Shown: positions 10,736-43,700, counted from the first letter of the stretch. The stretch: 64,000 nucleotides of DNA from an uncultured Gammaproteobacteria bacterium (GCA_964634875.1 CAZWKA010000006.1:12173-76172); one strand, 5' to 3'. A program made the numbers and translations. The notes: a model not told the origin generated them from the letters alone.

Positions 10736-10762
10736 TGAGTTTTACATTTTAAGCTTCTATCG

Positions 10763-10834: not shown

Positions 10835-10928
10835 GGTACACCTTGAGTTGCGCACTTAGGATACCATAACGACCCTTTCATTTCAAGGCTCTCGCGTGCT
10901 AAGATGGGCACAGGCACATCCCAAGCAA

Positions 10929-10978
10929 ATTCAGCAGAGTAGGCAGAGTAAGTAAAATTACTCTGCCTACTCTGCTGA
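10929..10978. repeat. Perfect 21-bp inverted repeat (about 48-bp palindrome) in the polA 5' region
   Basis: tcagcagagtaggcagagtaa-gtaaaa-ttactctgcctactctgctga. Confidence 0.8.
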
Positions 10979-11004
10979 GTACTTACTCCGCTGTATTCAC
11001 TTTC

Positions 11005-15499: not shown

Positions 15500-15587
15500 C
15501 GTATTCTCCCCATGGCAAAGTGCCAGGCCAATACTGTCTAGCATGAAAAAGCCCGGTTGTCAACGGTAATTCAATAACAAAATTTTG

Positions 15588-18196: not shown

Positions 18197-19171
18197 TTGA
18201 GATTAAAAAGTATGATCATTTTTGTCCACGGAGAAGACACGTTCCGCAGTCACCACTATGCCGCGGAGCAGGTCGAAAAATTCAAAAAAGCTCGGGATCC
18301 AGCCGGGTATAATGTGGCGGTTATTGATGGTAAAAAAGAACCCTTAGGAAAAATACTGGAGACCATTATGGCGAGCCCTTTTTTGGCTGAAAAACGAATG
18401 GTGCGAGTTAATAATATACTTTCCAACTCAGACAAAGGATTGCTCGCTGACCTAGTCGGGCGCCTTTCCGGTCAAAAAATGCCTGAGTCTACGGCCATCC
18501 TTTTTTGGCAAGGTGAACCCCTCTCGAAAGTAAAAGAAGCTAAAGAGCTGCAGGCGTTGTTACTGAAAGAAAAATATGTCCAGGAATTTCCTACTTTAGT
18601 CGGGCCAAAACTACAGGCTTGGATTCAAGAGGAAAGTAAGAAAAAAGACGGCAGCATTTCCCCGTCTGCAGCCGCCTATCTCGCTGCGAACAGCGGTGCG
18701 GATATGTGGCTCCTCACTTCACTTCTTAACCAATTGGTTGCTTTTAAAAATGGTCAGCGTATTGAAACCGCTGATGTCGAGCTCTTTTTAGACGAACAAG
18801 GTTCTGAAACCATTTTTAATGCTATTGATGCTGTTGCTGAAGGAAATAGTAAAAAAGCGTTTCTACTTTTGAGTGCGCAGCGAACCTTGGGTGCAGAAGA
18901 GGGATTTATTTTCAACATGCTGCTGCGTCAATTCAAGATCTTGCTCCAAATGAAAGATCTTGCTGAGCGCGAGAACCCTTCGCCCGATACCATGGCTAAA
19001 CTTCTTGGCCTCCCACCGTTTGTGGCCAAAAAAAGCGCCGGAGTACTCCGTCGCTTTACACTCGCTCAGCTCGAAGCCCGTTATCGAGAACTCTTGAATA
19101 TTGATCTTTCGATGAAAACGGGTGCAGCCGATCAGGCTGTGTTGGTGGATCGTTTTATTGCCACCGTTTAA
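18197..19171 (+). CDS. holA: DNA polymerase III delta subunit
   Basis: HolA-like N-terminus (MIIFVHGEDTF..) and overall 324-aa pattern. Confidence 0.75.
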   Translation: MRLKSMIIFVHGEDTFRSHHYAAEQVEKFKKARDPAGYNVAVIDGKKEPLGKILETIMASPFLAEKRMVRVNNILSNSDKGLLADLVGRLSGQKMPESTAILFWQGEPLSKVKEAKELQALLLKEKYVQEFPTLVGPKLQAWIQEESKKKDGSISPSAAAYLAANSGADMWLLTSLLNQLVAFKNGQRIETADVELFLDEQGSETIFNAIDAVAEGNSKKAFLLLSAQRTLGAEEGFIFNMLLRQFKILLQMKDLAERENPSPDTMAKLLGLPPFVAKKSAGVLRRFTLAQLEARYRELLNIDLSMKTGAADQAVLVDRFIATV

Positions 19172-20046
19172 GCCCGTGCTTCGGAAAAATGTTTGTGTTT
19201 TACTTCTTCGGCCTCGCCTCGAGTAAGGGTTGGTTCAAAATGGCGAAATTCACCTTTGGCTAAATCTTCTCGATACTCATCAAAAACCCTCCCCAGGTCA
19301 GATTTTATTTCTTCAAAAACTAATCGTGTCGCTAGTTCTTCAACAAGCCTCTCGGGGAGGCCGTTAAAACGCGCTCGGTAGACGGGTAAACGAGCCTCGA
19401 TTGCAGACCGATCAAGCCGTTTGGAAAAAAGTTCGTATTTATGGGCGAGTTCACGTTCGATGCTGGGTGCTAACCCCTCTACTTTCCGTAGCACTTCACC
19501 AACTGAATGTGGAAAACGTTCGGCCAAGACTTGGAGTAAGCTTGTCTTGCCTTCGACCACATCCATCATGGTGCCCGAAAGGTGTGGGGGGAAAAGAGTT
19601 TCTAAAACTTTGATGCCGCTTACTTCTTTTACATTTCTGCCTTCAACTTTGCGCACCAGGACCGTTATATTTTTTTTACCTTCGTACGTGCTGATTTCTT
19701 TTACTCCCACTTTTTCATCAGTATCCTCGCGGAAACTAAGCATGGAAATAATTTTTTTGTTGTGGTCCAGTTGGTCTTTGGCTTCTTTGCGTCCATTTTT
19801 TTTACCGGGCTGTTCGAGTAGTCCAAAATGTTCTTCAAAAGAAACGGTTGGCGTACCGACAAAATTATGCGGAGAGTAACTTTTTTTATAAAAACCAGTA
19901 GCGTTCTCAGAAAGTATCTGGAGCTGCGCGTACAGGTTGCCTAATTTTTTGGAAACTTGTTGCGCCAGCCAATCTTGGACAATTGCCTTGGTACTGATTT
20001 GCCGAGCAACAAAACTCTCGATTTGCTTGGGATTGTTGAGGTCCAT
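19168..20046 (-). CDS. Hypothetical 292-aa protein; its stop overlaps the holA stop (shared TTAA)
   Basis: Long ORF with codon usage like the core genes; I recognise no motif. Confidence 0.55.
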   Translation of the reverse strand: MDLNNPKQIESFVARQISTKAIVQDWLAQQVSKKLGNLYAQLQILSENATGFYKKSYSPHNFVGTPTVSFEEHFGLLEQPGKKNGRKEAKDQLDHNKKIISMLSFREDTDEKVGVKEISTYEGKKNITVLVRKVEGRNVKEVSGIKVLETLFPPHLSGTMMDVVEGKTSLLQVLAERFPHSVGEVLRKVEGLAPSIERELAHKYELFSKRLDRSAIEARLPVYRARFNGLPERLVEELATRLVFEEIKSDLGRVFDEYREDLAKGEFRHFEPTLTRGEAEEVKHKHFSEARA

Positions 20047-20358: not shown

Positions 20359-20542
20359 AGGTCAGTTTAGAAGTAAAAAATATTGAGAGCAATAGAACGA
20401 GTATAGCTGATGCGTGGCAAAACGTCAAGTTAGAGCCAAAAACCGTGTTCGCCTATTGACAAAACAGGCTTTTTCTGTTATGTACAAGATAAGAAAGTTC
20501 GCTTCCGTCCTGGATTCCCAACCACTTTTGTGAGGTCACGAA

Positions 20543-20905
20543 ATGAAACGTTCGCACGTCGCCCTCCTGGCCCTTTCTCTGCCTGCTTGCGTAGCCGGTC
20601 CTCTCTCGCTCCGCCCGGGCGTGGCGCCCGAGACCTGCTACCAGGCCAGCCAGCGCTTCGCCTGGGCGCCCGACTCCCGCAGGTGGGTCGCTTGCTTGCC
20701 GGACAATGGTGCGGTGACCAAACAGGGATACCGCCTGAAGATGGCCTTCGTCCCTGGCGACAACGGTTGTCGCCTCGAGGCTGCCCCGGACAACGGTCTT
20801 CACTCGCGGCTCTGGCCCAATGTTCCCACGGCTAACATCGATGACACCGGCGAGATGCCGTTCGCTGTCGATGGACAGCCCTACGTCTGCAAGATCGAGA
20901 ACTAG
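20543..20905 (+). CDS. Predicted lipoprotein in high-GC island 3
   Basis: MKRSHVALLALSLPACVAG lipobox; GAGG Shine-Dalgarno; promoter TTGACA-17-TATGTA at about 20454-20482. Confidence 0.55.
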   Translation: MKRSHVALLALSLPACVAGPLSLRPGVAPETCYQASQRFAWAPDSRRWVACLPDNGAVTKQGYRLKMAFVPGDNGCRLEAAPDNGLHSRLWPNVPTANIDDTGEMPFAVDGQPYVCKIEN

Positions 20906-20957
20906 CCCCCCCCACGACTCCTGGGTCAGCGCCGTTTTGGCTGCAGACCCAGGAGTT
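20906..20957 (+). repeat. C8 tract immediately after the stop codon, followed by an 11-bp-stem GC hairpin
   Basis: tag-cccccccc-acg-actcctgggtc...gacccaggagt. Confidence 0.8.
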
Positions 20958-21035
20958 GCTTTGTTTATGGAGGTAGCTTGACAAGACATCTTTTTTGCCG
21001 CTGTATAGGGGGTGCTTTTGAAAAGGAGTACCGCC

Positions 21036-21446
21036 ATGAAAGACAGTCGTTTACTCGGCAAAATTCTGTTCGTCCTCCTGTCTGCCTGTGCATCACAACC
21101 GCCGATCGTGTCTTCGCCTGTATCCAGCAGCCAACCCCAGGTGGAGCTTGCTTCAAACCAGTTGGTTGAGCCTCCAGATGGCTGTGCCGGTGATCGTGAG
21201 CGCCTTGGTACGTCGGTCGCTGGCGTGGGTACAATCTGTCGTTCCAGCCGGGATCAGTTCCCCCTCTTTATTAAGCTGACAGCCGAGGAAGATGGCTGCC
21301 GCCTTGTCACCAAGGTCTATCGCGGTGAAGAGGAGGTGCTTCATCTCAACACGCTGGCGAGCGAGATCGTGAAGAAGGGGTCGGCATACCATCTTTCAAC
21401 GAACCAAGAAAATTTTGTCTGCGAATCAGTGCGGTCGGAGGAATAA
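21036..21446 (+). CDS. Predicted lipoprotein in high-GC island 3
   Basis: MKDSRLLGKILFVLLSACAS lipobox; AAGGAG Shine-Dalgarno; a sixth CTTGACAAG copy at 20977-85 forms its -35. Confidence 0.55.
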   Translation: MKDSRLLGKILFVLLSACASQPPIVSSPVSSSQPQVELASNQLVEPPDGCAGDRERLGTSVAGVGTICRSSRDQFPLFIKLTAEEDGCRLVTKVYRGEEEVLHLNTLASEIVKKGSAYHLSTNQENFVCESVRSEE

Positions 21447-22815: not shown

Positions 22816-22868
22816 TTTTAGCCTGTTAGCACGCTCAAACGCAAAAACAATTTTGTTTTAGGGTGTGC
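22816..22868. other. 11-bp inverted repeat with a 30-nt loop upstream of the 22902 gene
   Basis: cctgttagcac...gtgctaacagg. Confidence 0.7.
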
Positions 22869-22901
22869 TAACAGGAACCATATACAAGGGGGTCCACGGT
22901 C

Positions 22902-23489
22902 ATGTGTGATCGTAACAAACTGCCTTCGGGAAACACTGGTGAAGAACGAGACTTCTGGGACTGGGTGGGTGCTGCTTACGCCAACCTGCTCGTCGACCAC
23001 GACGAAGTTGTCTTTCCTGTCTCGTTCGAGTGGTTGGTGTGCGATGAGGGTGAGGTAATCTACGGGTTCGAGTTGCTCGCTGACGACACGCTCATTTCAA
23101 CGCCATCTTCCGGCAACCCGCTTGGCAAAACGTATGAAGAACGCCTCTTCTGGAGTTGGGTTCGAGATGTCTACTACGATGTTCTCGGCCAGGTCTTTTT
23201 TGATCGTTTTCGTGTGGAACGCTTGAAGCCCGTTTCGACTCCGGGAGTTGGAGAGGAGGAGTGGTTTTATGAGCTGCTAACCGGTACGTGGATCAAACCC
23301 GTACCCGTCGAGGAACTCCGTCTCGCTGAGGCGGTACCGTTGTCTACTGATGACGTAGTTACGGGCCCGAAGCAGATCTTCTACATCCAGAACCAGGCGC
23401 CTGCCAAGCCGGATGGACCGCCTGCCCCCTTCCACTTCGTAGGACGCATCGTCCTCATGGGCGATAAATACGTCCTTGCTCAGGAGTGA
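22902..23489 (+). CDS. Hypothetical protein with an internal duplication (moderately high GC)
   Basis: Repeated motif EERDFWDWVGAAYANLL / EERLFWSWVRDVYYDVL; no known domain recognised. Confidence 0.5.
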   Translation: MCDRNKLPSGNTGEERDFWDWVGAAYANLLVDHDEVVFPVSFEWLVCDEGEVIYGFELLADDTLISTPSSGNPLGKTYEERLFWSWVRDVYYDVLGQVFFDRFRVERLKPVSTPGVGEEEWFYELLTGTWIKPVPVEELRLAEAVPLSTDDVVTGPKQIFYIQNQAPAKPDGPPAPFHFVGRIVLMGDKYVLAQE

Positions 23490-23951: not shown

Positions 23952-24022
23952 GGGCCTATGGTCTAGTGGTATGACACGGCATTCGCATTGCCGGAGCGGC
24001 AGTCCGATTCTGCCTAGGTCCA
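23952..24022 (+). tRNA. tRNA-Ala (anticodon CGC)
   Basis: G3:U70 identity pair, anticodon stem CGGCA/TGCCG, loop TTCGCAT, T-arm GGCAG-TCCGATT-CTGCC. Confidence 0.75.
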
Positions 24023-24042
24023 CACATTTGGTTGGTTTTTAT

Positions 24043-25539
24043 ATGGGCGAGCATTTTCTTCCACAGCACCCTCAAGAGGTCGAATCTTTAGATCGACCTA
24101 TTGCTGAGTTGCCTTTATCCGAAGCTCGGCAAAAAGTAGATGTTCCATTGTCTTTTTCTAATGAGGCAATGAATTTTTTGGGTAGCGAACATGTTACCGA
24201 GCTCGCCCGGATTATTGAGAGCGAAGAAGTGCGTACCATCGACCTTTTGTGCCTTGCGGGTGAAATGTCGGTAAAGGAAGCTGTTGAATACGCGATGCTT
24301 TTGCCCGAAGTTCGGGCTGCCTATCGCGTGATGGGTGAAAAAGTTGAAGCGCTTAATATCCGCCTGCGTGACAAAAAACTACCCCATTATATTTCGCGAA
24401 GTGTAAAAACAGCAGCGGGTAAAAAAACATATGATGCGCGCCCGATTGAAAATTTTTTTAACGGGGTCAATAATTTTTTTTCGGATGCGTCCAGAAAGAT
24501 CAGTGGGCGTTTGGTTGCCCAAACACTCCTGGGATATGCTGCACAGGAAGTGTACCGGACGCTCACCGTTGATGCATACCGATCACTCGATGCTTTTGAA
24601 GAGGGCGCACTAGATGGGGTTATGCAAGATATGGAACTGCGCGAAAGAAAAGGAGAATTTAAACCAACGGGCGAAGATGGAATTTCTAATCTCGATGCCC
24701 TCAAGGCAATACGTTTTTTTGAATCGTCTCGTTTTAAAACCGAACTTACATCGGCCGGACTATCGAGTAATCCCCCGGCCGAAGATGTTGTCGCGCTTTT
24801 TGAAGAAGTCGCTGATCTGTCGCTATATCGAAGCATTACTTTTACCCATGAAACTGAAAATATTCGGTTTAGCTTTCTGTCGGAAAATAATGATTCGGCA
24901 GTATATCAGCTCCAGAGCCGTTTGCCCGAAATTTGTAAGGTAGAGGTGGCGCTGAGGAAACCCGGGCATTATAAGGAAGCGTCGAAGTTTCCGTTGTCGA
25001 TCGATCGTTTTACGGGTGAACTTTCTACGGTTATGGTGACCAAGCTCTCGTCACATATTGGTAAGGTGGCTGAACTAGGGCTCCGTCATGTGTTGCTTGG
25101 GGAATTGCGCGAGTATTTACTTTCTAAAGAGGATGATATCGCGGAAGCGGAACCAATTGTTCGCCCGCGTAAGGAAGAGCAAAAAGAAACCGCCAGTCTT
25201 ATCGAAGATGGTGGTATGCGTGGCGGCCAGATGCAAAATGTTGAGGTTGCAACTGCAGAGACGGCTGTAGAAGAAACGGTGCCTTTGGTGAGAGTGGCCG
25301 GCGAAAAAGTTTCGTTAAAAAATTTAAAAGGCTTCAAAGGGGGCAGGATTAAAACTGCTTTAGTGAGCCTGCTAGGTGAAGCTAGGGTGCGAGGCTCTCA
25401 TCATATTTTTCGGTGTCGTGACGGTACGACCTATCCAATTAGTCTCCATGATGGGGAAGATGTCGGCACCGGCCTTCTCGGAAAGTGTTTAAAAAAATTT
25501 GGTATCCCGCCCGCAGAACTGCTCGAACAGCTTACCTAA
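24043..25539 (+). CDS. 498-aa hypothetical protein with a C-terminal HicA-like (YcfA) domain
   Basis: C-terminus RVRGSHHIFRCRDGTTYPISLHDGEDVGTGLLGKCLKKFGI matches the HicA pattern GSHH.....G...P.H........L..Q.GI; start moved to the first ATG after the tRNA. Confidence 0.7.
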   Translation: MGEHFLPQHPQEVESLDRPIAELPLSEARQKVDVPLSFSNEAMNFLGSEHVTELARIIESEEVRTIDLLCLAGEMSVKEAVEYAMLLPEVRAAYRVMGEKVEALNIRLRDKKLPHYISRSVKTAAGKKTYDARPIENFFNGVNNFFSDASRKISGRLVAQTLLGYAAQEVYRTLTVDAYRSLDAFEEGALDGVMQDMELRERKGEFKPTGEDGISNLDALKAIRFFESSRFKTELTSAGLSSNPPAEDVVALFEEVADLSLYRSITFTHETENIRFSFLSENNDSAVYQLQSRLPEICKVEVALRKPGHYKEASKFPLSIDRFTGELSTVMVTKLSSHIGKVAELGLRHVLLGELREYLLSKEDDIAEAEPIVRPRKEEQKETASLIEDGGMRGGQMQNVEVATAETAVEETVPLVRVAGEKVSLKNLKGFKGGRIKTALVSLLGEARVRGSHHIFRCRDGTTYPISLHDGEDVGTGLLGKCLKKFGIPPAELLEQLT

Positions 25540-25557: not shown

Positions 25558-26334
25558 TTAAGTGCTTGTCTCCATAGCTCTCCCCAAACTCCACAGCAGC
25601 TGAAAGAGTTGTTCAAAAGTGCGGCGGATTACTTTGCTTTCCACTACCCACGCCAAGCCCTCTTCGCGGGTACTAAAAAAAGCCACACTGTCATCCCAGA
25701 AAAAAATCGAAGCTTGGAATGCTAAATCCCGTGGTAAAAACTTTGCCTCGCGCAATTCTCGAACATGAGTCATTCGGGAGTATTTTTTTATTTCCCGTGT
25801 TTCGACGCGCAAGCTTTTGAGAAAAATCTTTTTTTCGATCCGACGTTTCGTAAAATGGAACCGTTCCCCAAAAATATCTTGAATTTCTTTGGCGGCGACA
25901 ATTTCATACAGGGTTTTATTTTTTGCTTCAAGTGCTTCGAGAAAAATATCATTCATGCGTTCGCGGTAGTACAGGCGAATCTTGGCTTTACTTTCTCCCT
26001 GCACTTGGAGTGTCTTCAAAAATGGAAGTATCTCCGCCGCTTCTTCCACTTTGCGTTCCATGATCTGTTTGATGACGCCGGGTTCCCCCGCTTCGTAGAC
26101 GTGGCGAGACTTTCGTTTTGTAATATTCACCACCCCAAAATCTACGAGCCGACCAAGGACTGCCTGCACTGTGGTTACGGGTAGCCCAACGCTCCGAGCC
26201 AACGGAGTGAGTGTCGTTGGTTTAAGCGTTAGCAGTTTTAAGTATACTTGGCGTTCTTTATCGTTCAGCCCAAAGCGTCCGAGTACCTCGTTAATTTCTT
26301 TGCTGCGCAAGGCGGTAATTTTTGGTAAAGACAT
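25558..26334 (-). CDS. TrmB-like winged-helix transcriptional regulator (paralog 1 of 3)
   Basis: N-terminal wHTH (..ERQVYLKLLTLKPTTLTPLARSVGLPVTTVQAVLGRLVDFGVV..) plus a TrmB-like C-domain. Confidence 0.75.
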   Translation of the reverse strand: MSLPKITALRSKEINEVLGRFGLNDKERQVYLKLLTLKPTTLTPLARSVGLPVTTVQAVLGRLVDFGVVNITKRKSRHVYEAGEPGVIKQIMERKVEEAAEILPFLKTLQVQGESKAKIRLYYRERMNDIFLEALEAKNKTLYEIVAAKEIQDIFGERFHFTKRRIEKKIFLKSLRVETREIKKYSRMTHVRELREAKFLPRDLAFQASIFFWDDSVAFFSTREEGLAWVVESKVIRRTFEQLFQLLWSLGRAMETST

Positions 26335-26507
26335 AAACTACTAAATTTTTCGTAGTAATTATATATATGTATTTGCTTTAGTATAGAGTAATTATTTTAT
26401 TGAGTCAAAAAATATACTATAAATTATATAAATAAAAACCTATTTTAAGTAGAGTAGCTTTGTCAGTGAAGTGCTGATGCGACGCTCTTTCACAATGGAG
26501 AAAACAT

Positions 26508-26774
26508 ATGAAGATCCTTAAGGAAGGCCTCTGGAAGAATCCCTGGAGCCACGAGTACGTGTGCAGTGAAAAGGATTGCGCAGCGACGCTCCTCGTCGAG
26601 GAGGCGGATCTGTCCGCGCCCAGCCGATATGACAACGAGGCTGGTCGGTACGAATTCACGTGTCCTATTTGTAGCAAGAAGAACAATGTGGCGGCCAAGG
26701 AAATTCCCCTTCGGATTAAAGAGCTGCTCGACAAGAAGCGGACAGTCAACCGTTCTTGGACGAGTGATCGGTAA
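26508..26774 (+). CDS. Small zinc-ribbon-like protein
   Basis: CSEKDC....CPICSKKN four-Cys arrangement; 88 aa. Confidence 0.45.
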   Translation: MKILKEGLWKNPWSHEYVCSEKDCAATLLVEEADLSAPSRYDNEAGRYEFTCPICSKKNNVAAKEIPLRIKELLDKKRTVNRSWTSDR

Positions 26775-26963
26775 ACTATGTGTCCGCTGCAAAAAAAGTT
26801 TCTCCATCAACACGCTCCTTTTCCGGTCGAAGCCTTGTGCTCGACCGGATCATCTCCCGGGTCGGTTCAATGAACTGGTTCGAGAGATGGCTCCGCGCCA
26901 TCAGTCTGGTTCTTTGACAATAAAAGTACGTTACCTAGTGGGTTTGTGCTCCCAGATTTGAGT

Positions 26964-26998
26964 ATTGACAAACACTAGATTGCAGGCTATAGTTAGCT
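26964..26998 (+). promoter_or_regulatory. Consensus-like promoter TTGACA-17-TATAGT for the purine-salvage operon
   Basis: gtaTTGACAaacactagattgcaggcTATAGT. Confidence 0.55.
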
Positions 26999-27056
26999 GT
27001 TTTTCTGGCCTGCTTGAGCCGTAGTTTTGCTGACCGTTCGTTTACAACCAAACCGA

Positions 27057-27108
27057 TATGTAGTGGAACGGCAGCTTGAAAGATCGATCTGGTGTTCCAC
27101 TACATATC
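27057..27108 (+). other. 14-bp perfect inverted repeat with a 24-nt loop in the operon leader
   Basis: atatgtagtggaac...gttccactacatat, just before the Shine-Dalgarno and the ATG at 27122. Confidence 0.75.
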
Positions 27109-27121
27109 ACAAGGAAAACCT

Positions 27122-27634
27122 ATGAGCCTCTACACTGTCCAAGAAATCGTGATCGGTTCTGATGCTGTACCCAAAGTGATGGCCGGCAAGCTCGCCTGCC
27201 CCAAAGACATCATCGTTGGCCATCCAGCCAAATCGCTGGTGAATAGGCAGCCCTGCGGCTTGAGCGAAATCAGGCAGGGTGCCTGCAACCGGCGGAAGGC
27301 CGCCCGTAAGGGTCGCCCCAGCGGTGACATCTGGATCGGTATCGAGAATGGTGTGGTGTGGCAAGGTGGTAAGTGGTTTGACCTGGCCGCCGTTGCCGGA
27401 TGTAACCGAGCAGGCCGTGAAGTGCTCGTCTGGTCGCTGGCGATCGAGATCCCCACGTGGGTGGTGACCGCAGTTAGAAGACACGGTTTCGATACGACGA
27501 CCATCGGTCTCATGTATGCGGGAGCTGTTAAAGGTGTTGATCACCAGGACATCCACGCTCACCTCACCAACGGCGCCCTGAAACGTGAACAGATCCTGGC
27601 CCAGGCCATCGTAGTCGTGCGGGCTCAGCTGTAG
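27122..27634 (+). CDS. yjjX: Non-canonical purine NTP phosphatase (inosine/xanthosine triphosphatase, YjjX/DUF84-like)
   Basis: SLVNRQPCGLSEIRQGACNRRKAARK....DIWIGIENG parallels E. coli YjjX SxVxxQPxGxxETRxGAxNRxxxAR...DFWVAIEAG. Confidence 0.65.
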   Translation: MSLYTVQEIVIGSDAVPKVMAGKLACPKDIIVGHPAKSLVNRQPCGLSEIRQGACNRRKAARKGRPSGDIWIGIENGVVWQGGKWFDLAAVAGCNRAGREVLVWSLAIEIPTWVVTAVRRHGFDTTTIGLMYAGAVKGVDHQDIHAHLTNGALKREQILAQAIVVVRAQL

Positions 27635-27676
27635 AATTTAGAAAAGCTACGAATTGAAAGGATATAGGTAAAAAGC

Positions 27677-28717
27677 ATGCGTCGTAAGCAGAACATCATC
27701 CTCTACTTCCCGACGATGAAGAAGCTCGCCTACTCCATCGTTGCGAAGCTCCGCAGACTCAAGAACAATAAGTTCGTCGTGCGTGACCCCAAGATGTCTG
27801 AGTTCGCAGACGGGTCGCCGACGAGCGCGATCCCGAATGTCCGTGGCGCTGAGGTCACGGTGGTGGCAGACATGCAGGGTGAGCACCCCAGCATTGCCTT
27901 CATGCGGCTCGCCGAGATCCTCGACGCGCTTGAGCGGGCAGGTGTAGCTGCGGTCACGGTGGTGATGCCGTACCACAGTTTTTCTCGCTCCGATCGCAAG
28001 GCCAAGGGCCGCGAGTCGATCATGGTGGCTCGAATCGCGACTTTCCTCAAGACCTACAACACCCTCAAACGCATCATCACCATCGATCTCCACTCCGACC
28101 AAATCGAGGGGATGTACACTGGCATCAGTGTTACACACCTCTCCGGGTCGCTCATCTTCGCGCCGAAGTGCCGTCCCATGGCCAAGAAGTCCAAGGATCC
28201 GCTCGTCACGATCGCTGGGGACGTCGGTGGTGCTCGCCGGACGCGCAACACCGCTCGTCTTACTGGTGGTCACACAGTGATGATGATCATGGATAAGACT
28301 CGCCCCAAGAAGAACGAGGCCGAGATTATGGGAATTCTTTGTGACCGTAAGGTCGTCAAAGGACTTCAGGCGGTCATCTGCGATGATGTCGTTGATACCG
28401 CTGGCACTCTGGTTGGGGTCATCAAAGAGGCTAAGAAGATGCGGCTGCGGGCGACTACTGTCATGGCGACGCACGGTGTCCTATCACCAAGTAAGGGGAC
28501 GACAGCGATCAGCAAGCTGCGTGCGAGCGGTGTCACCAAGATCGTCCTCTCTGACACAATCCCCCTGTCGGCCGCGAAGAAGGCAGAGGCGGGCGCTTTG
28601 ATCGAAGTCGTCAGTTGCGCTGATCTGCTTGCCTCAACGTTGCATGCCATTACTACCCCGAATGGCAGCGTCAGCCGCCTCTACGACAATGCCCGCGCCG
28701 CCGCCAAGCGCGCCTAA
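27677..28717 (+). CDS. prs: Ribose-phosphate pyrophosphokinase (PRPP synthetase)
   Basis: DLHSDQIEGMY (cf. DLHA.QIQGFF), GDVGGARRTR, and the PRPP-binding loop ICDDVVDTAGTL. Confidence 0.8.
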   Translation: MRRKQNIILYFPTMKKLAYSIVAKLRRLKNNKFVVRDPKMSEFADGSPTSAIPNVRGAEVTVVADMQGEHPSIAFMRLAEILDALERAGVAAVTVVMPYHSFSRSDRKAKGRESIMVARIATFLKTYNTLKRIITIDLHSDQIEGMYTGISVTHLSGSLIFAPKCRPMAKKSKDPLVTIAGDVGGARRTRNTARLTGGHTVMMIMDKTRPKKNEAEIMGILCDRKVVKGLQAVICDDVVDTAGTLVGVIKEAKKMRLRATTVMATHGVLSPSKGTTAISKLRASGVTKIVLSDTIPLSAAKKAEAGALIEVVSCADLLASTLHAITTPNGSVSRLYDNARAAAKRA

Positions 28718-28740
28718 CACACATAAGGAGAACGTCAGTC

Positions 28741-29292
28741 ATGAGCAATATGATAGCTCACTACCTGTCCCAGTTTCTCGAACCTATCCTGGACTTTCCG
28801 CGGCCAGGCATCGTGTTCCGCGACATCAGCCCCCTGCTCCGCAACCCCGAGGCCAAGGAGACGTGCTTCCTCGAGATGGGCCGTCAGCTCGAGCAGGCGG
28901 GCATCGGCTTCGACCTGGTCGGGATGATCGACGCCCGCGGCTACATCTTCGGCGAGCCCATCGCCCAGCGGCATCGTCGCGGCTCCATCATGGTGCGGAA
29001 AGCCGGTATGATGCCGGTGCGCAAGGGCGCCAAGCTCGTGCGGAAGTCGTATGGTCTTGAGTATGGCACGAGCACCATCGAGATGCAGGACTACGCCGTC
29101 GAGAAGGCTCAGCGGGTCCTCATTGTCGACGACGGCCTCGCGACCGGCGGCACGGCCAAGGCAACGGCTGAGCTCGTCGAGGAACTTGGTGGTATCGTCG
29201 CCGGCTTCCTCTTCGTCTTCGAGATTGAGTCCTGTGGTGGACGACAGATGCTTGACGGCTACCAGGTCGTCAGCATCGTCAAGTTCCCGTAG
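28741..29292 (+). CDS. apt: Adenine phosphoribosyltransferase
   Basis: ILDFPRPGIVFRDISPLL.., VLIVDDGLATGGT PRTase motif; 183 aa. Confidence 0.85.
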   Translation: MSNMIAHYLSQFLEPILDFPRPGIVFRDISPLLRNPEAKETCFLEMGRQLEQAGIGFDLVGMIDARGYIFGEPIAQRHRRGSIMVRKAGMMPVRKGAKLVRKSYGLEYGTSTIEMQDYAVEKAQRVLIVDDGLATGGTAKATAELVEELGGIVAGFLFVFEIESCGGRQMLDGYQVVSIVKFP

Positions 29293-29295
29293 TTA

Positions 29296-29305
29296 CCCCC
29301 CCCCC
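29296..29305 (+). repeat. C10 homopolymer 3 nt after the apt stop codon
   Basis: tag-tta-cccccccccc. Confidence 0.9.
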
Positions 29306-29315: not shown

Positions 29316-29391
29316 CCCTGGCCGCAGGCGTTCTTCTATAGAGCGCCTCGGCCAACACTAAAAACACCCCAATATACTGGGGTGTTTTTAG
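29316..29391 (+). repeat. Repeat unit A (HP1 GC hairpin plus HP2 terminator), a roughly 80%-identical copy of 29909-29986
   Basis: ggccgcaggcg-ttcttctatagag-cgcctcggcc ... aaaacacccca-atatac-tggggtgttttt. Confidence 0.8.
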
Positions 29392-29460
29392 TTTCTACCC
29401 TTGACGCATGCCCAATTTTCTGCTACCACTATTCGGTGCCGCTGTAAGGCGAGGGGGAAC

Positions 29461-30105: not shown

Positions 30106-30852
30106 CTATAGTTCCACGCTAGTCATCTTTTCACGCGTCCAAATAAGTTCAAACAAGATCCGAAATGTTTCGGAAAGAAGGACGTTTGTCAAAATTGTTC
30201 CAAAGATAGGTTCGTGTAGAGTTATTAAGGCAATATTGTCATCCCATATAAGAATATCTGTTGGTTGATCTTGATGCTCTGGTGGTAAAAGTTTAACTTC
30301 ATAGAACCCTTTAAGTAAGGTTTTGCTTTGCTCGGCGAGCGGCTTGGAGCGTGCACTTAAAATATCTTGAAAAATAATTCCTCGTTTTTTTACTTCAGCA
30401 AAATATCGCCCCAGAAACCCGGGCATTAATTTTTCAATATTATTCGTTGAACCAATAGCAATTATTTTTTGAGACTGAAGTGACGCTGCATATATTTCCT
30501 TAATCTGATCAATTCCTTCATAAAACCGAATTTTTGGTTTATTTTTTTGTGTCGTATACAGGCCGCGCAGATCAGGTAGTACCTGTTGAATTGCCTCTTT
30601 TCTTTTTTCGAGCGCACGTATCAACGATTCCGGATCATTAGCCAAGTAGGCTTTACGTTTGTTGCGTGCGCGCTCTTCAATTAAACCTTTATCTTGGAGT
30701 GAGGCTAGCACGTTATAACAGTTGGTGCGGGCAATTGCTGTGCCTCGTGCCACCTGTGGCGGGCTCGAAGCGCCGTTTTCGAGTAAATACAAATACACCA
30801 GTATTTCAGAATGGTTGAGTCCAGCTAGCTTTAGTTGATCGTGTAAGCTCAT
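30106..30852 (-). CDS. TrmB-like transcriptional regulator (paralog 2)
   Basis: wHTH (..SEILVYLYLLENGASSPPQVARGTAIARTNCYNVLASLQDKGLI..); ATG start at MSLHDQ (the ORF-track start at 30894 is TTG). Confidence 0.75.
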   Translation of the reverse strand: MSLHDQLKLAGLNHSEILVYLYLLENGASSPPQVARGTAIARTNCYNVLASLQDKGLIEERARNKRKAYLANDPESLIRALEKRKEAIQQVLPDLRGLYTTQKNKPKIRFYEGIDQIKEIYAASLQSQKIIAIGSTNNIEKLMPGFLGRYFAEVKKRGIIFQDILSARSKPLAEQSKTLLKGFYEVKLLPPEHQDQPTDILIWDDNIALITLHEPIFGTILTNVLLSETFRILFELIWTREKMTSVEL

Positions 30853-30941
30853 AATGTCAAAATTATATATATCATTTATAATCAATTTAGTCAAGCGATT
30901 ATTAAAAATGTAAAAATAATAGTAGTTATATTATTGACAAT

Positions 30942-31583: not shown

Positions 31584-32377
31584 TGTTCATTGGTACTGGC
31601 GCTGTTCGCCAATCGCATTTCGCCCACACCCGGTAAGCGAAATGTATCGATCAATTAAGGAGAATAAACCGGGCTCCAATTCTCGCTACAAACATTTGCA
31701 TCGAGTGAGGAGAACATGGGCTATAAGGAAATTGATTGGAAGGCAGAAGCCAGCTGCTACCTAACGTTGCGTGACGAATTGGCTGTGGCAGAGGATCAGC
31801 TGCACTCCGTACGCCATGCGCTATTTACCAATCCTCAAATACCATAAGTATTTAGAGAATAAGCTTAAACAGCTTTTTAAGGAATCATCAGGTTATAGGG
31901 CAGCAGCAAGCTCTCACCTTAATCAAGTAGTTCTTCTTTTATATGGTCTGGAGCGGTGGTTAGTTGAGTGGGGTCTTTAATAAAGTTTGTTCTCTAGTGA
32001 ACTCGGCCGGCCTTCAAAAGCCGGTCTGCTATTTTTTAGTTTTTGTTGTAGGTTGTCCCAAGCTATCCCACAATCCTTCAAACCATAAAGTAAACCAATG
32101 ATGTATTGCCCCATTCTCAACGATTACTCCTGCCAAAAACAGGATGACTGGTTTCTGTAGGCTATTTTAAGTGGAGGTAAGAGCGATGGCAAAGGATTTT
32201 TGTTTGCCGGCGACGCCTTAATTGGCACTTGCTTTGTCAAAGAACAAAAGGAAATTCGATCCTAAGGCTGGTTTTTTGTTTGGAGTAATTATCAAAAGGG
32301 GACAAAACTGTGGATAAGCCAGTGTATAAGTCGCTATTAAGTGGATAAATGTATACACTATTGTATACAAACATATA

Positions 32378-32523: not shown

Positions 32524-32543
32524 TGTTTCACATGAAACATTTT
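32524..32543. repeat. Third TGTTTCAC-ATGAAACA-type palindrome overlapping the TrmB-3 stop codon; a fourth, perfect copy ttgtttcacgtgaaacaa lies inside the gene near 32690-32712
   Basis: tgtttcacatgaaaca. Confidence 0.8.
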
Positions 32544-33264
32544 AGTTTTTTATCGATTCCCACGCAAGATTAAACAAAGATCGATAGGTCTCAGCGACGT
32601 CACTGCTTTCAATTACTGTGGCGAGCGGTACATCTTTGTATGAGAATATAGCCAAACTATTTCCAAAAATAATGTTATCCGTTGGTAGTTTTGTTTCACG
32701 TGAAACAATTTTGATCTGATGAAATTGGGAGTTGTGTTCTTTGGCAAATTGCAGTGAGGCTTCGTCATAGGGCACTAAATCGCGCACGTGCATTTTTCGA
32801 TCTTCGATAATCTGTAAATATGGCCAAATTTTTTCAAGAACTTCGGGGTGAATGGCGTTAATTGATCCAAAAATATCGAGCTCATTCCAAGTGAAAATTT
32901 CACGGTAAAGGGCTGTAAGGCTTTCAACTCCTTGATAATAACGAATTTTTGGTTTCTCCTTTTTTGAGTTATACAAAGCAGCTAATTCAGGAATAGCCTC
33001 CTTGAGCAGGTGGCTGCGTTGTCGTTCCTCTTCGACCAGTCGTTCTGGTGATTCGGCAGCGTAGATCATGCGACGACCAGGTGTAATGCTTGCCAGCCCC
33101 CGCTCACGAAGTTCTTCCAAAATCAAATAGGTGGTTGGTCTTTTAGTTCCGGCCCGTTTTGACAATTGAGCAACCGAAGCACTGCCGGCCTGAAGAAGTG
33201 CAAGATAGACTTCTGCCTGTTTAGGATGCAGACCGAGTGTGGCAAGGGTTTTTGAGAGTTCCAT
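32542..33264 (-). CDS. TrmB-like transcriptional regulator (paralog 3)
   Basis: wHTH (..AEVYLALLQAGSASVAQLSKRAGTKRPTTYLILEELRERGL..); C-domain closely related to paralog 2 (KPKIRYYQGVESL.. vs KPKIRFYEGIDQI..). Confidence 0.75.
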   Translation of the reverse strand: MELSKTLATLGLHPKQAEVYLALLQAGSASVAQLSKRAGTKRPTTYLILEELRERGLASITPGRRMIYAAESPERLVEEERQRSHLLKEAIPELAALYNSKKEKPKIRYYQGVESLTALYREIFTWNELDIFGSINAIHPEVLEKIWPYLQIIEDRKMHVRDLVPYDEASLQFAKEHNSQFHQIKIVSRETKLPTDNIIFGNSLAIFSYKDVPLATVIESSDVAETYRSLFNLAWESIKN

Positions 33265-36857: not shown

Positions 36858-37790
36858 ATGCGTGCATTTTTTTTAAAAATTATCGGAATCAGCTTCCTTC
36901 TTGGAGGTTTTGTTGTGCAAGAAGCGCAGGCGCTTTCACTCAGCCCGTCCCGAGGGGTTATTACGGTTGACCCAGGTGTGACCGGCGACGTGGTTGTCAA
37001 CTTTACGAATGATGAGGAGGCAAAAGTAATTTTGCAATTAGGTGTTACGGGCCTTAAGCAGGATCAAGCCGGTCGGCCTATTTTTGGGGCAGGTTTTGAC
37101 GCTGCCGAATCTTGGGTTGTGCCGGAAAAGAGCGATATTGAACTTGGCCCGGGCGAACGACAAGCTATAATTTTTAAAGTAACTGTCCCTCCCGGTGCCA
37201 CACCTGGCTCACATTGGGTAGCCTTGGCTGCCGAAACCCGTCCAGGAGTTGGCGGGAGTGCTGTTGTGAACAGTCGCTTAGTAAGCCTTTTGGCAATCCA
37301 AGTTGCTGGTGTGGTGACGGAAGACCTTTCCCTCGACGCCAAACTTGAGGAGCATGTTGCTGTTGGTGGCGAAACTTTGCCGCTCTCTGTGCAGTTGCTT
37401 AATAATGGCAATATTGAAGTACCGCTTGTCGGTAAAGTAACTTTCCGTTCACTGTCTGGTCGGGAACTAAAAACCACTCCATTTATTGTCGGCAATCAAT
37501 TACTGCCTCAGGCTGAACGTACGGTTGAATATGCTGTCGTCGCGGGTAGGAATAAACAGTGTGCTGCAGAATCGAACACGTCTCTTTGTGCTGAGCTGTT
37601 TTGGCCAGGTTTGTATAAAATGACCACGAGCATTACCTATGGAAAAACTCAGCAAGTAGTGGTGGGCGAAGAATCTTTTTGGTATCTGCCACTCTGGAGT
37701 TTGGGTGGCGGCATTGTTCTTGTTGGGCTTGTTGTCTTTAGTGTCCGTAAGGTGCGCCGTCGTAGCATGTTTCAAAAGTATGTTTCGTAA
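36858..37790 (+). CDS. CscA/DUF916-DUF3324-like cell-surface protein with a C-terminal TM anchor and basic tail
   Basis: Signal peptide, beta-rich ectodomain, C-terminal ..LGGGIVLVGLVVFSVRKVRRRS. Confidence 0.55.
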   Translation: MRAFFLKIIGISFLLGGFVVQEAQALSLSPSRGVITVDPGVTGDVVVNFTNDEEAKVILQLGVTGLKQDQAGRPIFGAGFDAAESWVVPEKSDIELGPGERQAIIFKVTVPPGATPGSHWVALAAETRPGVGGSAVVNSRLVSLLAIQVAGVVTEDLSLDAKLEEHVAVGGETLPLSVQLLNNGNIEVPLVGKVTFRSLSGRELKTTPFIVGNQLLPQAERTVEYAVVAGRNKQCAAESNTSLCAELFWPGLYKMTTSITYGKTQQVVVGEESFWYLPLWSLGGGIVLVGLVVFSVRKVRRRSMFQKYVS

Positions 37791-40754: not shown

Positions 40755-43700
40755 ATGTTTCGTTTAAGACAAAAACATTTCAAGTCAAAACTTTTCCAAG
40801 CCCTTATGGGTCTCGGAGTGTTTTTGTTTTTTACAACCGCTTTCATTTTTTCTTACAGTCCAGCTGAGGCCGCTCCGACGGGTCCAAGCATTTTTACGTA
40901 CCAAGGCAAACTCTTAAGCAGTGCTAATGCGCCGATCAGTACGGCCGTCATGATGAAATTTGTTTTGTACGATTCGCTGACTGACGGTGCCGCTTTGTAT
41001 AGTGCTGCGGGGACACCGGGGGCACCAACCGCCGTAAGTATTACCCCCTCAAGCGGTATTTTCAGTGTTAATTTGGGTGGGACTGATACTAATCCAGTTG
41101 ATTCGGGTATTTTTAGAGATAATCCGGCTGTGTATCTGGAAGTTACGGTTGGTGCAGAAACTCTGACGCCGCGCAAACAGATTACAGCAAGCCCCTATGC
41201 CTTTAATGCTTTGTACCTCGATGGACAGAGTCTGGATACGAATTCGACCACTGCCTACATTCCACTCTCCGACGACCAAGGAAACTTTCGGTTTAATAAT
41301 ATAACTAGTACCGCCTTTTTCGTTACTGGTACAAGTACGTTAGCCACGACAACGATTAATAGTTCAACTATTACCAATGCAAATGTTACTAACCTCACGG
41401 TTAATGGCACCGTTTCATTTCTGAGTAATTCGTTGTCGGATGCCATGATTCCAGACACGATTACCGCGAGTAATTATTTGTTACTTGCTGGTGGTACCCT
41501 TGGTGGCGATCTGGCCTTTGGAGGCAATGATATCACGGGGCTCAATGATTTGAGTTTGAACGGCACCTTGACGAACAGTGGTCTAACACTGCTCGCGGGC
41601 GGTTTTATCGCCTCCGCTTCGTCAACCGTCAACGCCCAGCTCAATGTTCAAGGGCCGCTCAGCGCCTCTTCAACTCTTGTTGTAGCGGCCACTTCAACGT
41701 TCGCAACAGGGGTTGGTATCGCTACTTCGTCGCCGTTGGCTGCCCTTACTATCCAAGACGGTAGCATTTTAGCTGTCGGGAGCGCCGGTGGCACACCGTA
41801 CCAAGGGCCTGGTACACGACTAATGTGGGTTCCTAATAAAGCCGCTTTCAGAGCCGGATACGTTAATGGCTCACAGTGGGATGCTGCAAACATTGGTATT
41901 TACTCCACAGCATTCGGTGAAAATAATCAGGTGTCAGGTGACCGCGCGTTTGCGGGCGGTGCTGGCAATACTGTGAGTCAAACGGCCTCGGTTGCCTTTG
42001 GTGGTAGTAATACGGTAAGTGTTACTTATTCGGGCGCATTTGGTTTAAGTAATATAATTAACGGCGGCGGTGGCGGTTTCGCCTTTGGTATGAACAACAC
42101 GGTGAGTGGAGCGAGTTCTGCAATTGCCCTGGGTACAGGTAACAGTTCTGCTGGGGGCAGCGGTTCAACTGCTATTGGAAGTGCCAACAGCGCAGGTGGA
42201 ACAACAGCGATTGCTCTGGGTTCAAATATGTCGGTCAGTGGAAATAATTCAGTTGGTATCGGGCTTGATACAAATAATCGAACTCTGTCTCGAAACAATA
42301 CATTGGCGATTATGGGTGGCAATGTTGGTATTGGCACGTTGACCCCAGGTTATTTACTTTCGGTAAGCGGAACGCTGGCAGTCAGTGCTACCTCCACATT
42401 TGTCACTACAACTGCGGTGAGTTCTACAATTGAAACAGCTAATATCGCTTCGTTGTTTGCTAATACAGCAACAATTACCTCGCTCACTGTTACCAATTGT
42501 ACCGGGTGCGGTGGAGGGGTTTCGCTGGCTGCTAATCAGACTTTTACTGGTTTAAATACTTTTGCGGCAACCACAACGCTTGCAACTACTACGATTGGGG
42601 GAAGTCTTACTCCTTCAACCACTAACTTTTACGACTTAGGCACTTCTTCCACGCAGTGGAGATATTTAAATGTTTACGGAGGTGTTTTTCAGGCGGATGG
42701 TGTCACCACGTCTTCTTTAGAACAGCATCAACTCATTCTTGGTCAAGCTGTGGGGTATGATAAAGGTAAATTCTATATTGATGCCAGCGGCAATATTAGT
42801 GCTTCTGGCTCACTTCGGCTTGCCGGCAATGTTTTGCCATCTGCGCGGCCATCGTTTACAGTGACAGCGCGTACTACAAGTACGCTGAGTTCGGTTTTTG
42901 ATGCGGGTGGTGGAGGAGACAGAAATATTTCAATGGTAATTAATGCTGACGGTTTTCCTATAGTAGCTTTTACTGCCAATGCCAATGATTTACGGGTAGT
43001 AAAATGTGGAAACGCTGATTGCTCGGCAGGGAATATAGACACGGTTGTTGCTGTAAATGATGTAATCGGTCAGTCAAATTCTATGGCACTTGGATCCGAT
43101 GGCTTGCCAGTTATTGCGTATCAAGGCGCTGGCAGTGGAAGCGTGCACGTTATTCACTGTGGTAATTTGGCGTGTAGTAGTGGAAATACCACCACTGATG
43201 TTAACGGATCAAATCAAGGAACATACTTATCGTTGGCGATTGGTATTGATGGAATGCCTGGAATTGCTGTTTTTGACGTGAATAATGATGTTCGGTATAT
43301 CAAGTGTCTCAATTTGACCTGTTCGGCCAGTCAAGACAATCCAGTGGATGTTTCCGCAACTATTTCAACAGGTCATTATATTTCGTTGGCCATCGCCAAT
43401 AACGGTTATCCAATGATGGCATATTATAATCCAGATAAAACATCTTTGGACTACGCGCTTTGTGGCGATCCTGCTTGCAGCGATCGAGCCAAAATTACCA
43501 CAACTACAGTAGATAACACTGCTGACCAAGGGCAGTATGTTTCTTTGGCTGTTGGTTCAGATGGTCTTCCGGTTATGTCGTACCGCGACCCAACCTTTAA
43601 TCGTCTTATCGTGACGCGTTGCTTTAGCATGCTGTGCAATGGCGCAACAGATGGGGCAGTTTTGTCTAGTGGCGACTATGCAGGAGCAGGTATATACAGT

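Follow-up and report, generated by a model that had tools for sequence, protein, structure and literature searches.

A purine-salvage operon whose enzyme genes have probably been displaced in situ within a conserved regulatory module

Introduction

Mosaic operons, which Omelchenko et al. (Genome Biology, 2003) are said to have described as the outcome of xenologous gene displacement in situ, keep their gene order, their flanks and their regulatory DNA, while single genes within them give way to functionally equivalent distant homologs and the gene trees conflict. Here, we describe a locus that resembles such operons, namely the genes yjjX-prs-apt, which encode a YjjX-family nucleoside triphosphatase, a phosphoribosyl pyrophosphate (PRPP) synthetase (Prs) and an adenine phosphoribosyltransferase (Apt). 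The operon lies in a 64,000-nucleotide stretch of DNA, hereafter the window, from an uncultured bacterium recorded as a member of the Gammaproteobacteria (GCA_964634875.1, CAZWKA010000006.1:12173-76172). As judged from its sequence, the locus fits in situ allele displacement in a mosaic operon, with a conserved context and discordant gene trees.

An earlier note on this DNA had read the operon as one acquired from elsewhere. We consider it likely instead that it is a promoter-driven, tricistronic operon for purine salvage and house-cleaning within a conserved module, in which the open reading frames (ORFs) of the enzymes have been repeatedly displaced in situ while the control elements were inherited. 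To our knowledge, yjjX of E. coli does not stand in an operon with prs or apt. Because organisms unable to make nucleotides rely on salvage, the way in which salvage genes are kept, regulated and exchanged bears on host dependence.

Results

Enzyme genes and their flanks show discordant relationships

Besides the lineage of the window, at least four others have the module, in which yjjX-prs-apt stands beside a divergently transcribed TrmB-family regulator. L018 (GCA_964540825.1, together with the Logan assemblies L019 and L020) shows the same order as the window: holA, the ribosomal protein S20 gene, rmuC, tRNA-Arg, tRNA-Ala, a TrmB gene (minus strand), an 88-aa gene, yjjX-prs-apt, a further TrmB gene and a TPR gene. 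The locus of L102 (GCA_964510495.1) is likewise arranged as in the window. L107 (GCA_964594675.1; the Logan assembly L106 is its 99.8% identical counterpart) has the divergent TrmB gene beside yjjX-prs-apt in a different chromosomal context, and L108 (Logan run SRR22388280) in yet another one. In L016 (GCA_023246715.1), prs only is found, right after tRNA-Arg and tRNA-Ala. These two tRNA genes lie directly upstream in the window, L018 and L016, and the short L102 locus shows tRNA-Ala only.

The flanking proteins of L018 and L102 are 87-93% identical, those of the window are 69-89% identical to both, and L016 is more distant. The enzymes depart from this order, each in its own manner. For YjjX, identity is 43-44% in each of the pairs formed by the window, L018 and L102, and 36-43% to the more distant lineages. 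Prs shares 33% identity between the window and L018 and 31% between L018 and L102, yet 63% between L018 and L107 and 65% between L102 and L016. Apt of the window is 79% identical to that of L018 but only 38-40% to that of L102.

In nucleotide profiles, the changes in identity coincide with gene borders. Between the window and L018, identity is ~80% across TrmB1 (the regulator beside the operon), the small gene and the leader. It is 42-65% over the stretch that begins with yjjX and closes with the prs stop codon, and 75-92% in apt. The comparison of L018 with L102 is near random from the yjjX start to the apt stop, with 82-90% in the leader and the 3' untranslated region (UTR). Identity falls from ~80% to ~45-55% exactly at the yjjX start and recovers at the apt start (window and L018) or after the apt stop (L018 and L102). 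In TrmB1, the 88-aa gene, PyrRedox and TrmB3, synonymous sites are saturated or nearly so between the window and L018. They are most alike in apt, with an identity of 0.70 versus 0.42 by chance, the highest value in the neighbourhood; a separate recent transfer of apt is not claimed, because the synonymous sites of rmuC and holA are also above chance.

A neighbour-joining tree of Prs with 200 bootstraps sets the six module Prs apart from 30 generic Prs (200/200) and divides them into class A (window, L102, L016) and class B (L018, L107, L108), each found in 200/200 replicates, with the species-like pair of L018 and L102 in 0/200. The Apt tree does not unite the module alleles; outside the window-L018 pair, none of them is closer to the other alleles of the module than to Apt of other phyla. 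In the phylogenies that had been proposed as a check for these two proteins, Prs thus forms a module clade of its own and Apt is not monophyletic, with outside matches of at most 50%.

Protein searches returned a single relative of Prs at 46% (all others at most 38%), and for Apt the L018 allele at 79% (all others at most 50%). The YjjX-like protein has no word-level relative, and relatives of ~35-44% appeared only in an exhaustive HMMER search. No protein outside the module lineages was found to exceed 50% identity to Prs, Apt or YjjX, so there is no candidate donor. A metagenome scan with the Apt alignment gave generic Apt loci only (at most 47% identity) and no further relatives, and a scan of a genome collection with Prs gave ordinary Prs only, at 32-33% (Streptococcus and a gammaproteobacterial metagenome-assembled genome), and no close relatives.

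A persistent GC-rich signature of the enzyme genes

The genes yjjX, prs and apt have a GC content of 0.59, 0.585 and 0.62 and a GC content at third codon positions (GC3) of 0.68, 0.735 and 0.83, compared to a GC content of 0.477 for the window and a GC3 of ~0.40-0.53 for its core genes. The contrast bears out the GC-rich operon that had been described. The corresponding GC3 values are 0.69, 0.77 and 0.84 in L018, 0.68, 0.84 and 0.85 in L102, and 0.70, 0.78 and 0.72 in L108; in L107 they are 0.43, 0.63 and 0.71, versus 0.30-0.39 in the flanks. Because the module is GC3-rich in every lineage, the excess is persistent. As this composition is common to all lineages and allele classes, it cannot be the un-ameliorated trace of one recent import. 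The enrichment is absent from TrmB1, the flanking genes and the ribosomal protein S20 gene of L018. The codon bias of high expression was set aside on the strength of the latter, one gene only, with a GC3 of 0.44. Candidate sources of the excess are alleles circulating in a GC-rich pool, or local upkeep by GC-biased gene conversion at a recombination hotspot or by selection on mRNA.

GC3 climbs along the operon (yjjX, then prs, then apt) in four of five lineages, L108 being the exception. At 2558-4169 of L102, the intact prs and apt ORFs were missed by the gene caller, and the public calls give spurious opposite-strand ORFs of 162 and 250 aa in their place, a typical artefact in GC3-rich genes. 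Other small, unassigned ORFs of the window have a GC3 of 0.60-0.75 (6523-7230, 15032-15544, 20453-21061, 22902-23489 and 51824-52744), which makes the operon the strongest but not the sole GC3-rich case. The ORFs at 20453-21061 and 22902-23489 are without a counterpart in L018. GC-rich genes may mark a flexible part of the window's genome.

A conserved promoter and a structured leader precede the operon

The sigma-70-type promoter read earlier as TTGACA-17-TATAGT stands (Table 1): its hexamers are kept in L018 (TATAGT) and L102 (TATACT), while several positions of the spacer vary. The predicted 5' UTR starts with a U-rich tract, GUUUUUCU, which is predicted to pair with the Shine-Dalgarno region, and holds a conserved unpaired segment with a copy of a recurrent motif, GTTCGTTTACAA (27036-27047). 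The stem-loop that follows has an outer stem of 15 perfect Watson-Crick pairs, or 16 counting one G.U pair, and its 3' end lies 2 nucleotides before the Shine-Dalgarno sequence AAGGA (27111-27115), with the yjjX ATG at 27122. The perfect hairpin first noted here is therefore present just upstream of the Shine-Dalgarno site, but its length of 14 base pairs has to be corrected to 15 perfect pairs in a helix of ~24. Compared to shuffled sequences, the leader fold has a z of -3.9.

The 5' UTR shares 78-83% nucleotide identity with those of L018 and L102 and ends in a sharp fall at the start codon. The promoter hexamers, the first ~55 nucleotides of the leader and the stem-loop are kept in all three genomes, and the coding sequence behind them is swapped. 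The leader is conserved next to genes whose synonymous sites have reached saturation between the window and L018. In the consensus fold of the three leaders, an 8-base-pair helix joins GUUUUUCU at the 5' end to the Shine-Dalgarno region, where A-to-G changes keep U.G pairs. Between the helices lies a strongly conserved segment, in which only two short helices of 5 and 3 base pairs are predicted. The outer arms of the stem are invariant in sequence in 3/3 genomes; the inner helix varies but stays paired, and two compensatory pairs are seen in L018 (G-C to C-G and A-U to G-C). Since one G.U pair of the stem is invariant in all three sequences, an RNA of the sense strand is favoured. A dispersed repeat or miniature inverted-repeat transposable element was rejected for the hairpin, whose arm occurs once only in the window.

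Neither of the two roles suggested earlier for the hairpin, attenuator or RNA switch, finds support in these data. There is no U-tract after the hairpin, the sequence after the stem being ACAAGGAAAACC, and a terminator scan called nothing there; because of the missing U-tract, the leader is not a classical attenuator. Rfam 15, run on the whole window at the gathering threshold, returned tRNAs only, and no known riboswitch family matches the leader: positions 26750-27200 at E up to 10 gave two chance microRNA matches only. The leaders of L016 and L107 are unrelated in sequence, yet have long perfect hairpins before the first gene. Elsewhere in the window, a hairpin of 21 perfect pairs (10931-10978) stands 27 nucleotides before polA, and another long hairpin (22822-22875) lies between rmuC and the ORF at 22902, so that each is placed shortly ahead of a start codon. 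Hairpins adjoining Shine-Dalgarno sites may be a general feature of the window's genome, and similar leader hairpins elsewhere would agree with a role of a general kind, in the stability or processing of mRNA or in ribosome access.

The adjacent regulator, the small gene and a recurrent motif

TrmB1 orthologs are found divergently beside yjjX-prs-apt in L018, L102, L107 and L108, with identities of 93, 86-87, 71-73 and 51-55% that form a clean hierarchy. Within 8 kb, the window holds three paralogous TrmB-family regulators, all on the minus strand (25558-26334, 30106-30894 and 32542-33264), with 24-26% mutual identity, and L016 has three such regulators in a row at the corresponding place. An AlphaFold2 model of TrmB1, made from the three window paralogs and of low confidence (predicted local distance difference test of 62), has TrmBL2 and TrmB as its best full-length matches, at a template modelling score of ~0.3. 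The low-confidence model bears out a TrmB/TrmBL2-like architecture, in which the C-terminal domain cannot be interpreted. TrmB1 is a candidate dedicated regulator of the module, a link to the operon that we infer from their constant neighbourhood.

The zinc-ribbon-like protein encoded next to TrmB1 is 77% identical in L018 and 68% in L102; a paralogous type occurs in L102 and L107 (71% identical). Of the two hairpins behind its gene, the one at 26823-26848 keeps its stem in L018 and L102 with a varying loop, and L107 has CCGGACAAGA...TCTTGTCCGG at that place.

The motif of the general form GYTCNTTNACAA has 4 matches in the window versus 0.39 expected, a count reached by 0/100 shuffles, and three of the copies lie within 560 base pairs of the control region. 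It is found at homologous positions in L018, L102 and L107, with one copy in the leader of L108. In several cases it directly precedes a Shine-Dalgarno sequence, with which its U-rich half can pair. We take it as the best candidate for an operator or a translational control element of the module.

Tandem hairpins behind the operon

Directly after apt, a GGCCG...CGGCC hairpin is present in all five lineages, with differing inner stems and even behind a different apt allele. The 3' UTR fold has a z of -9.9 and shows a strong hairpin at 29319-29354 with another strong one in tandem at 29357-29392. The latter is likely the terminator of the operon, possibly a bidirectional one. The C10 tract that had been taken as the end of the operon is present, but it is not conserved in the relatives, and the tandem hairpins are most likely the end signal instead; the tract is probably incidental.

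Table 1 Features of the salvage module. Positions refer to the window unless a relative is named.
Feature	Position	Strand	Basis or remark
TrmB-family winged-helix regulator TrmB1	25558-26334	-	Pfam TrmB, E 2.7e-13; divergent from the operon side
Intergenic control region between TrmB1 and the zinc-ribbon gene	26335-26507	.	75-85% nucleotide identity to L018; synonymous sites of adjoining genes saturated
Motif copy GCTCTTTCACAA	26484-26495	+	just before the Shine-Dalgarno sequence of the 88-aa gene
Zinc-ribbon-like protein CxxC...CxxC, 88 aa, no assigned function, part of the module	26508-26774	+	ORF; weak sub-threshold Pfam matches only
Two tandem hairpins after the small gene, 26823-26848 (CCGGTCGA...TCGACCGG) and 26851-26889	26823-26889	+	fold
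Motif copy GTTCTTTGACAA	26909-26920	+	general form GYTCNTTNACAA
Further copies of GYTCNTTNACAA	27036-27047; 32234-32245; L016 8207-8218	+; -; -	
Sigma-70-type promoter TTGACA-17-TATAGT	26965-26993	+	11/12 consensus positions
Predicted 5' UTR, ~123 nucleotides	26999-27121	+	start placed from the -10 hexamer
Leader stem-loop, ~24 base pairs	27055-27108	+	arms 27055-27079 and 27084-27108
YjjX-family (NTPase_I-T/DUF84) protein, putative ITP/XTP triphosphatase, 170 aa	27122-27634	+	Pfam PF01931
Class-I-like ribose-phosphate diphosphokinase (PRPP synthetase, Prs), 346 aa, allele class A	27677-28717	+	TIGR01251, Pfam
Adenine phosphoribosyltransferase (Apt), 183 aa	28741-29292	+	NF002636 equivalog
C10 homopolymer in the 3' UTR	29296-29305	+	absent at the homologous place in L018, L102 and L107
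3' hairpin GGCCG...CGGCC	29319-29354	+	fold; conserved
The same hairpin in relatives	L018 ~10580-10625; L102 ~4195-4235; L107 ~5580-5605; L108 ~4485-4510		
Terminator-like palindrome AAAAACACCCC...GGGGTGTTTTT	29357-29392	+	fold and inverted repeat; kept in L018 and L102

The three enzymes

The three consecutive, co-oriented genes named in the earlier note were recovered at their given positions by Pfam and NCBIfam. The YjjX-like protein matches Pfam PF01931 at E 2e-19 with 70.3 bits (cut-off 25), over profile positions 24-156 of 162, and aligns to E. coli YjjX (PDB 1U5W, E 1e-5) with the common motifs QP.G..E...GA.NR and IE.G. It is a divergent member of the family, whose substrate cannot be assumed. 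The family named earlier (pyrophosphatase-like YjjX for inosine and xanthosine triphosphate, ITP and XTP) holds, and the enzyme name gives way to that of NCBIfam, which calls the YjjX family a triphosphatase.

Prs matches Pribosyltran_N, Pribosyl_synth and Pribosyltran of Pfam and reaches 181.7 bits on TIGR01251 (cut-off 113); its alleles in L018, L102 and L107 reach 188-198 bits. Solved class I PRPP synthetases in the PDB align with it over the entire length (E ~5e-36). The catalytic motifs R-x-D-R-K, D-x-H..Q..G, K-x-R...N-E, DD..DT and ATHG are unchanged across 5/5 aligned module alleles. We take K-x-R...N-E to be the catalytic flexible loop and DD..DT.G to be the ribose-5-phosphate loop, on the basis of the Prs structures of B. 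subtilis and E. coli. Apt is a type I phosphoribosyltransferase with 170.9 bits on NF002636 (cut-off 125); it misses the stricter TIGR01090 (151.8 versus 185.85). Because all of them keep the family scores and catalytic motifs, the enzyme alleles of the module look functional.

The intergenic gaps are 42 nucleotides between yjjX and prs and 23 between prs and apt. A terminator scan found no site in either gap and weak terminator-like sites within genes only.

Genomic setting

The window is a segment of a bacterial chromosome near the replication origin, with dnaN, dnaA, tig, a H+-pyrophosphatase gene, polA, holA, rmuC, ychF and type IV pilus genes. Its RNA genes called by Rfam at the gathering threshold are 4 tRNAs only, with 0 rRNA. 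The salvage module occupies a variable island just downstream of tRNA-Arg and tRNA-Ala, and no integrase or transposase was seen in the window. Between tRNA-Ala and TrmB1, a 522-aa ORF (23971-25539, plus strand) forms an insertion relative to L018 and L102 and has a weak, slightly sub-threshold HicA-toxin-like match at its C-terminus. The ORF overlaps tRNA-Ala at its annotated start and therefore probably begins further downstream. A defence-system reading of the locus was dropped, since PADLOC, run on the operon and the genes around it, returned no more than a weak generic phosphoribosyltransferase match to ShosT.

Two further window ORFs, 19168-20046 (minus strand) and 36858-37790 (plus strand), are only 28% and 49% identical to their positional counterparts in L018, so hyper-divergent genes are not limited to the salvage operon; their neighbours reach 70-89%, and neither ORF is GC3-rich. 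In L018, a free-standing LAGLIDADG homing-endonuclease gene (10759-11118, minus strand) follows right after apt; it is also found in L019 and L020 and is absent from the window and L102. This gene could promote local gene conversion. Downstream in the window, two adjoining giant ORFs on the plus strand (40755-46013 and 46095-51731; 1752 and 1878 aa) follow a 1014-aa ORF.

Discussion

The pattern seen at this locus is unexpected. Regulatory DNA and regulator show stable inheritance, yet the 'housekeeping' enzymes behind them give way to deeply divergent alleles, even in closely related genomes. A distinct GC-rich codon signature is retained by the enzyme genes as well. We propose the following mechanism. 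The PRPP synthetase would make PRPP from ribose-5-phosphate and adenosine triphosphate, Apt would use this PRPP to convert scavenged adenine to adenosine monophosphate, and the YjjX-family enzyme would probably clear deaminated purine triphosphates (ITP, XTP). The other half of the module would be the divergently transcribed TrmB-family regulator, usually accompanied by the small zinc-ribbon gene. Transcription of the three genes together would start at the near-consensus sigma-70 promoter, pass through a 5' UTR of ~123 nucleotides with its long stem-loop set against the Shine-Dalgarno site, and end at the tandem 3' hairpins. The leader most likely acts as RNA, and we prefer a role in mRNA stability or processing and in ribosome access over ligand-dependent termination. 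The regulator and the non-coding control elements would be inherited, and the enzyme ORFs would be repeatedly exchanged for functional alleles of very different sequence, by recombination with its anchors in the conserved UTRs and the gene borders. Saccharibacteria lack de novo nucleotide synthesis and are naturally competent (PMC10633639), which bears on the mechanism only if the present genome is patescibacterial.

A rival in the line of the earlier note's acquired operon would be the recent acquisition of a ready-made salvage operon from an outside donor of high GC, whose composition has not yet been ameliorated. The signs of exchange behind that reading persist, since the GC3 of 0.68-0.83 stands out from ~0.40-0.53 in the core genes, the variable island adjoins tRNA genes, the gene trees are discordant, and Apt of the window and L018 is nearer to other phyla (47-50%) than to that of L102 (38-40%), with no organism of the candidate phyla radiation among the named top matches. 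The recent outside donor does not persist, and we hold it to be very improbable. The module lies at the matching locus in L018 and L102 (prs in L016) with an equal GC3 excess, though the flanking synonymous sites are saturated. It co-occurs with a vertically evolving TrmB in five lineages, its Prs proteins form a clade apart from the 30 generic ones in 200/200 bootstraps, no outside protein exceeds 50% identity, and promoter and leader are lineage-conserved. Of the usual marks of a recent island, the locus shows atypical composition and adjacency to tRNA genes. Close relatives also have the module, however, no donor above 50% identity was found, and the only mobility-type gene is the LAGLIDADG gene of L018. 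The enzyme genes might instead never have been replaced, having diverged in place, by diversifying selection or local hypermutation, down to a floor of ~35-45% identity, with the more similar pairs reflecting slower episodes or rare exchange. The star-like identities of YjjX, with three close alleles that are mutual best matches, the single clade of all module Prs and the hyper-divergence of other positional orthologs in the neighbourhood (28% and 49%) would agree with such a course. It sits poorly with Prs, which is 63% identical between L018 and L107 and 65% between L102 and L016 but 31% between L018 and L102, with classes A and B fully supported against the flanks. It also conflicts with Apt, whose 79% (window-L018) and 38% (L018-L102) reverse the relatedness of the flanks, and with breakpoints at gene borders next to non-coding DNA that is ~80% identical. 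Very fast divergence in place is therefore the weaker alternative, chiefly for YjjX, and as an account of the whole operon we regard it as unlikely. An assembly or binning chimera is scarcely credible, even with metagenome-derived contigs throughout the comparison. Independent assemblies of different runs give the same junctions (L019-L018 100%, L020-L018 98.5%, L021-window 100%, L106-L107 99.8% identity), and because they reproduce the mosaic structures at 98.5-100% identity, these are not chimeras; moreover, the breakpoints fall at gene borders and the reading frames are intact.

For the leader, a metabolite-sensing riboswitch or transcription attenuator responding to purine, PRPP or a related ligand would account for ~80% conservation in three genomes with swapped coding sequence, for the strongly conserved unpaired segment, and for a place before purine-salvage genes that is typical of such switches. 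We nevertheless think it improbable, as Rfam offers nothing beyond chance microRNAs even at E up to 10, neither a U-tract nor a called terminator follows, and the main element, a long and nearly perfect helix, lacks the junctions or internal loops that aptamers usually have. Similar long hairpins, in addition, stand before unrelated genes such as polA, and the leaders of L107, L016 and L108 differ. The inverted repeat could also act as DNA, as a palindromic operator of the TrmB-family regulator that is always adjacent, and the invariance of its outer arms in three genomes fits sequence recognition as well as pairing. Arms of ~24 nucleotides are, however, far longer than a typical operator half-site. 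The G.U pair in all three sequences, as well as further G.U variants, pairs only as sense-strand RNA, the inner helix changes its sequence and keeps its pairing, and the motif GYTCNTTNACAA is the better operator candidate. A purely DNA-based role of the repeat thus appears highly unlikely.

Several points weigh against our preferred reading of in situ displacement around inherited control elements. The trees are simple neighbour-joining trees on long branches, with outgroups picked as best matches to the window proteins, and the comparison draws on metagenome-derived contigs of some five or six lineages. Among 1.8 billion representatives, the window, L018 and L102 still have one another's YjjX alleles as best matches, which also fits very fast divergence in place. 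The explanation gives no cause for the high GC3. The enzyme activities are derived from family membership, and the YjjX-like protein scores below the NCBIfam equivalog cut-offs for inosine/xanthosine triphosphatase (44.6 versus 117 bits on TIGR00258 and 41.6 versus 175 on NF003459). Covariation among the three leader sequences, with 2 compensatory pairs and 95% of cells paired, is not significant, as 73/500 shuffles reach the observed value. Finally, the leader of L108 shows no obvious long hairpin, so this element is not universal in the module.

A more speculative extension, to which we give little credence at present, would see the locus as a site of cassette exchange. The leader, the GGCCG...CGGCC hairpin and the gene borders would serve as recombination anchors and as lineage-specific regulatory RNAs (the new leader element and the GYTCNTTNACAA motif by Shine-Dalgarno sites), and a shared pool of functional alleles of Prs, Apt and the YjjX-like enzyme that are 55-70% divergent would be swapped among lineages by natural transformation. 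Diversifying or frequency-dependent selection, for example by phage or host inhibitors of the salvage enzymes, would drive this exchange, and GC-biased conversion would raise GC3. Should displacement in situ be confirmed in more genomes, the locus would be a clean natural example of this process, a caution against taking atypical GC as proof of recent foreign origin, and a source of a candidate new leader RNA and operator motif for the control of nucleotide salvage in reduced genomes.

Set beside known systems, the individual parts are familiar to differing degrees. The YjjX-like protein belongs to the Pfam family of E. coli YjjX (PDB 1U5W; PF01931, TIGR00258) above threshold, with comparable length and motifs, but matches it at E 1e-5 only and remains under the equivalog cut-off. 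Prs keeps the catalytic loop, the ribose-5-phosphate loop and the C-terminal S-x-S of class I PRPP synthetases (E. coli 4S2U/6ASV; B. subtilis 1DKU) and scores above the curated cut-off; it differs in having ~35-38% identity to any ordinary Prs and in forming a lineage-specific clade with two deep classes. Apt resembles bacterial Apt (NF002636) above the curated cut-off. TrmB1 shares with archaeal TrmB and TrmBL2 (PDB 3QPH, 5BOX) the N-terminal TrmB winged helix, a long helix and a C-terminal alpha/beta part; unlike them, it is bacterial and linked to a nucleotide-salvage operon instead of sugar genes. The leader recalls mRNA-stabilising 5' UTR stem-loops and RNase III sites in its long, nearly perfect helix adjoining the Shine-Dalgarno site near the 5' end, and fourU RNA thermometers in the U-rich tract at its 5' end, complementary to the Shine-Dalgarno region. 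In contrast to both, the Shine-Dalgarno pairing predicted here is weak and spans a long range, and the sequence resembles no described element. With purine and PRPP riboswitches and the PyrR and PurR leaders it has in common a conserved, structured leader before nucleotide-metabolism genes, and it departs from them in the lack of an Rfam match, of a terminator/antiterminator pair and of a visible PyrR-like binding loop. Compared to the mosaic operons from which we set out, all three enzyme genes have been hit independently, among genomes that are 87-93% alike in flanking proteins, and the Prs alleles come from a lineage-specific pool with no obvious foreign phylum, all alleles carrying the GC3 excess. 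Salvage operons and mosaic operons are thus known phenomena; what is new here is the conserved scaffold of TrmB, promoter, leader and 3' hairpins around exchanged, GC3-rich alleles.

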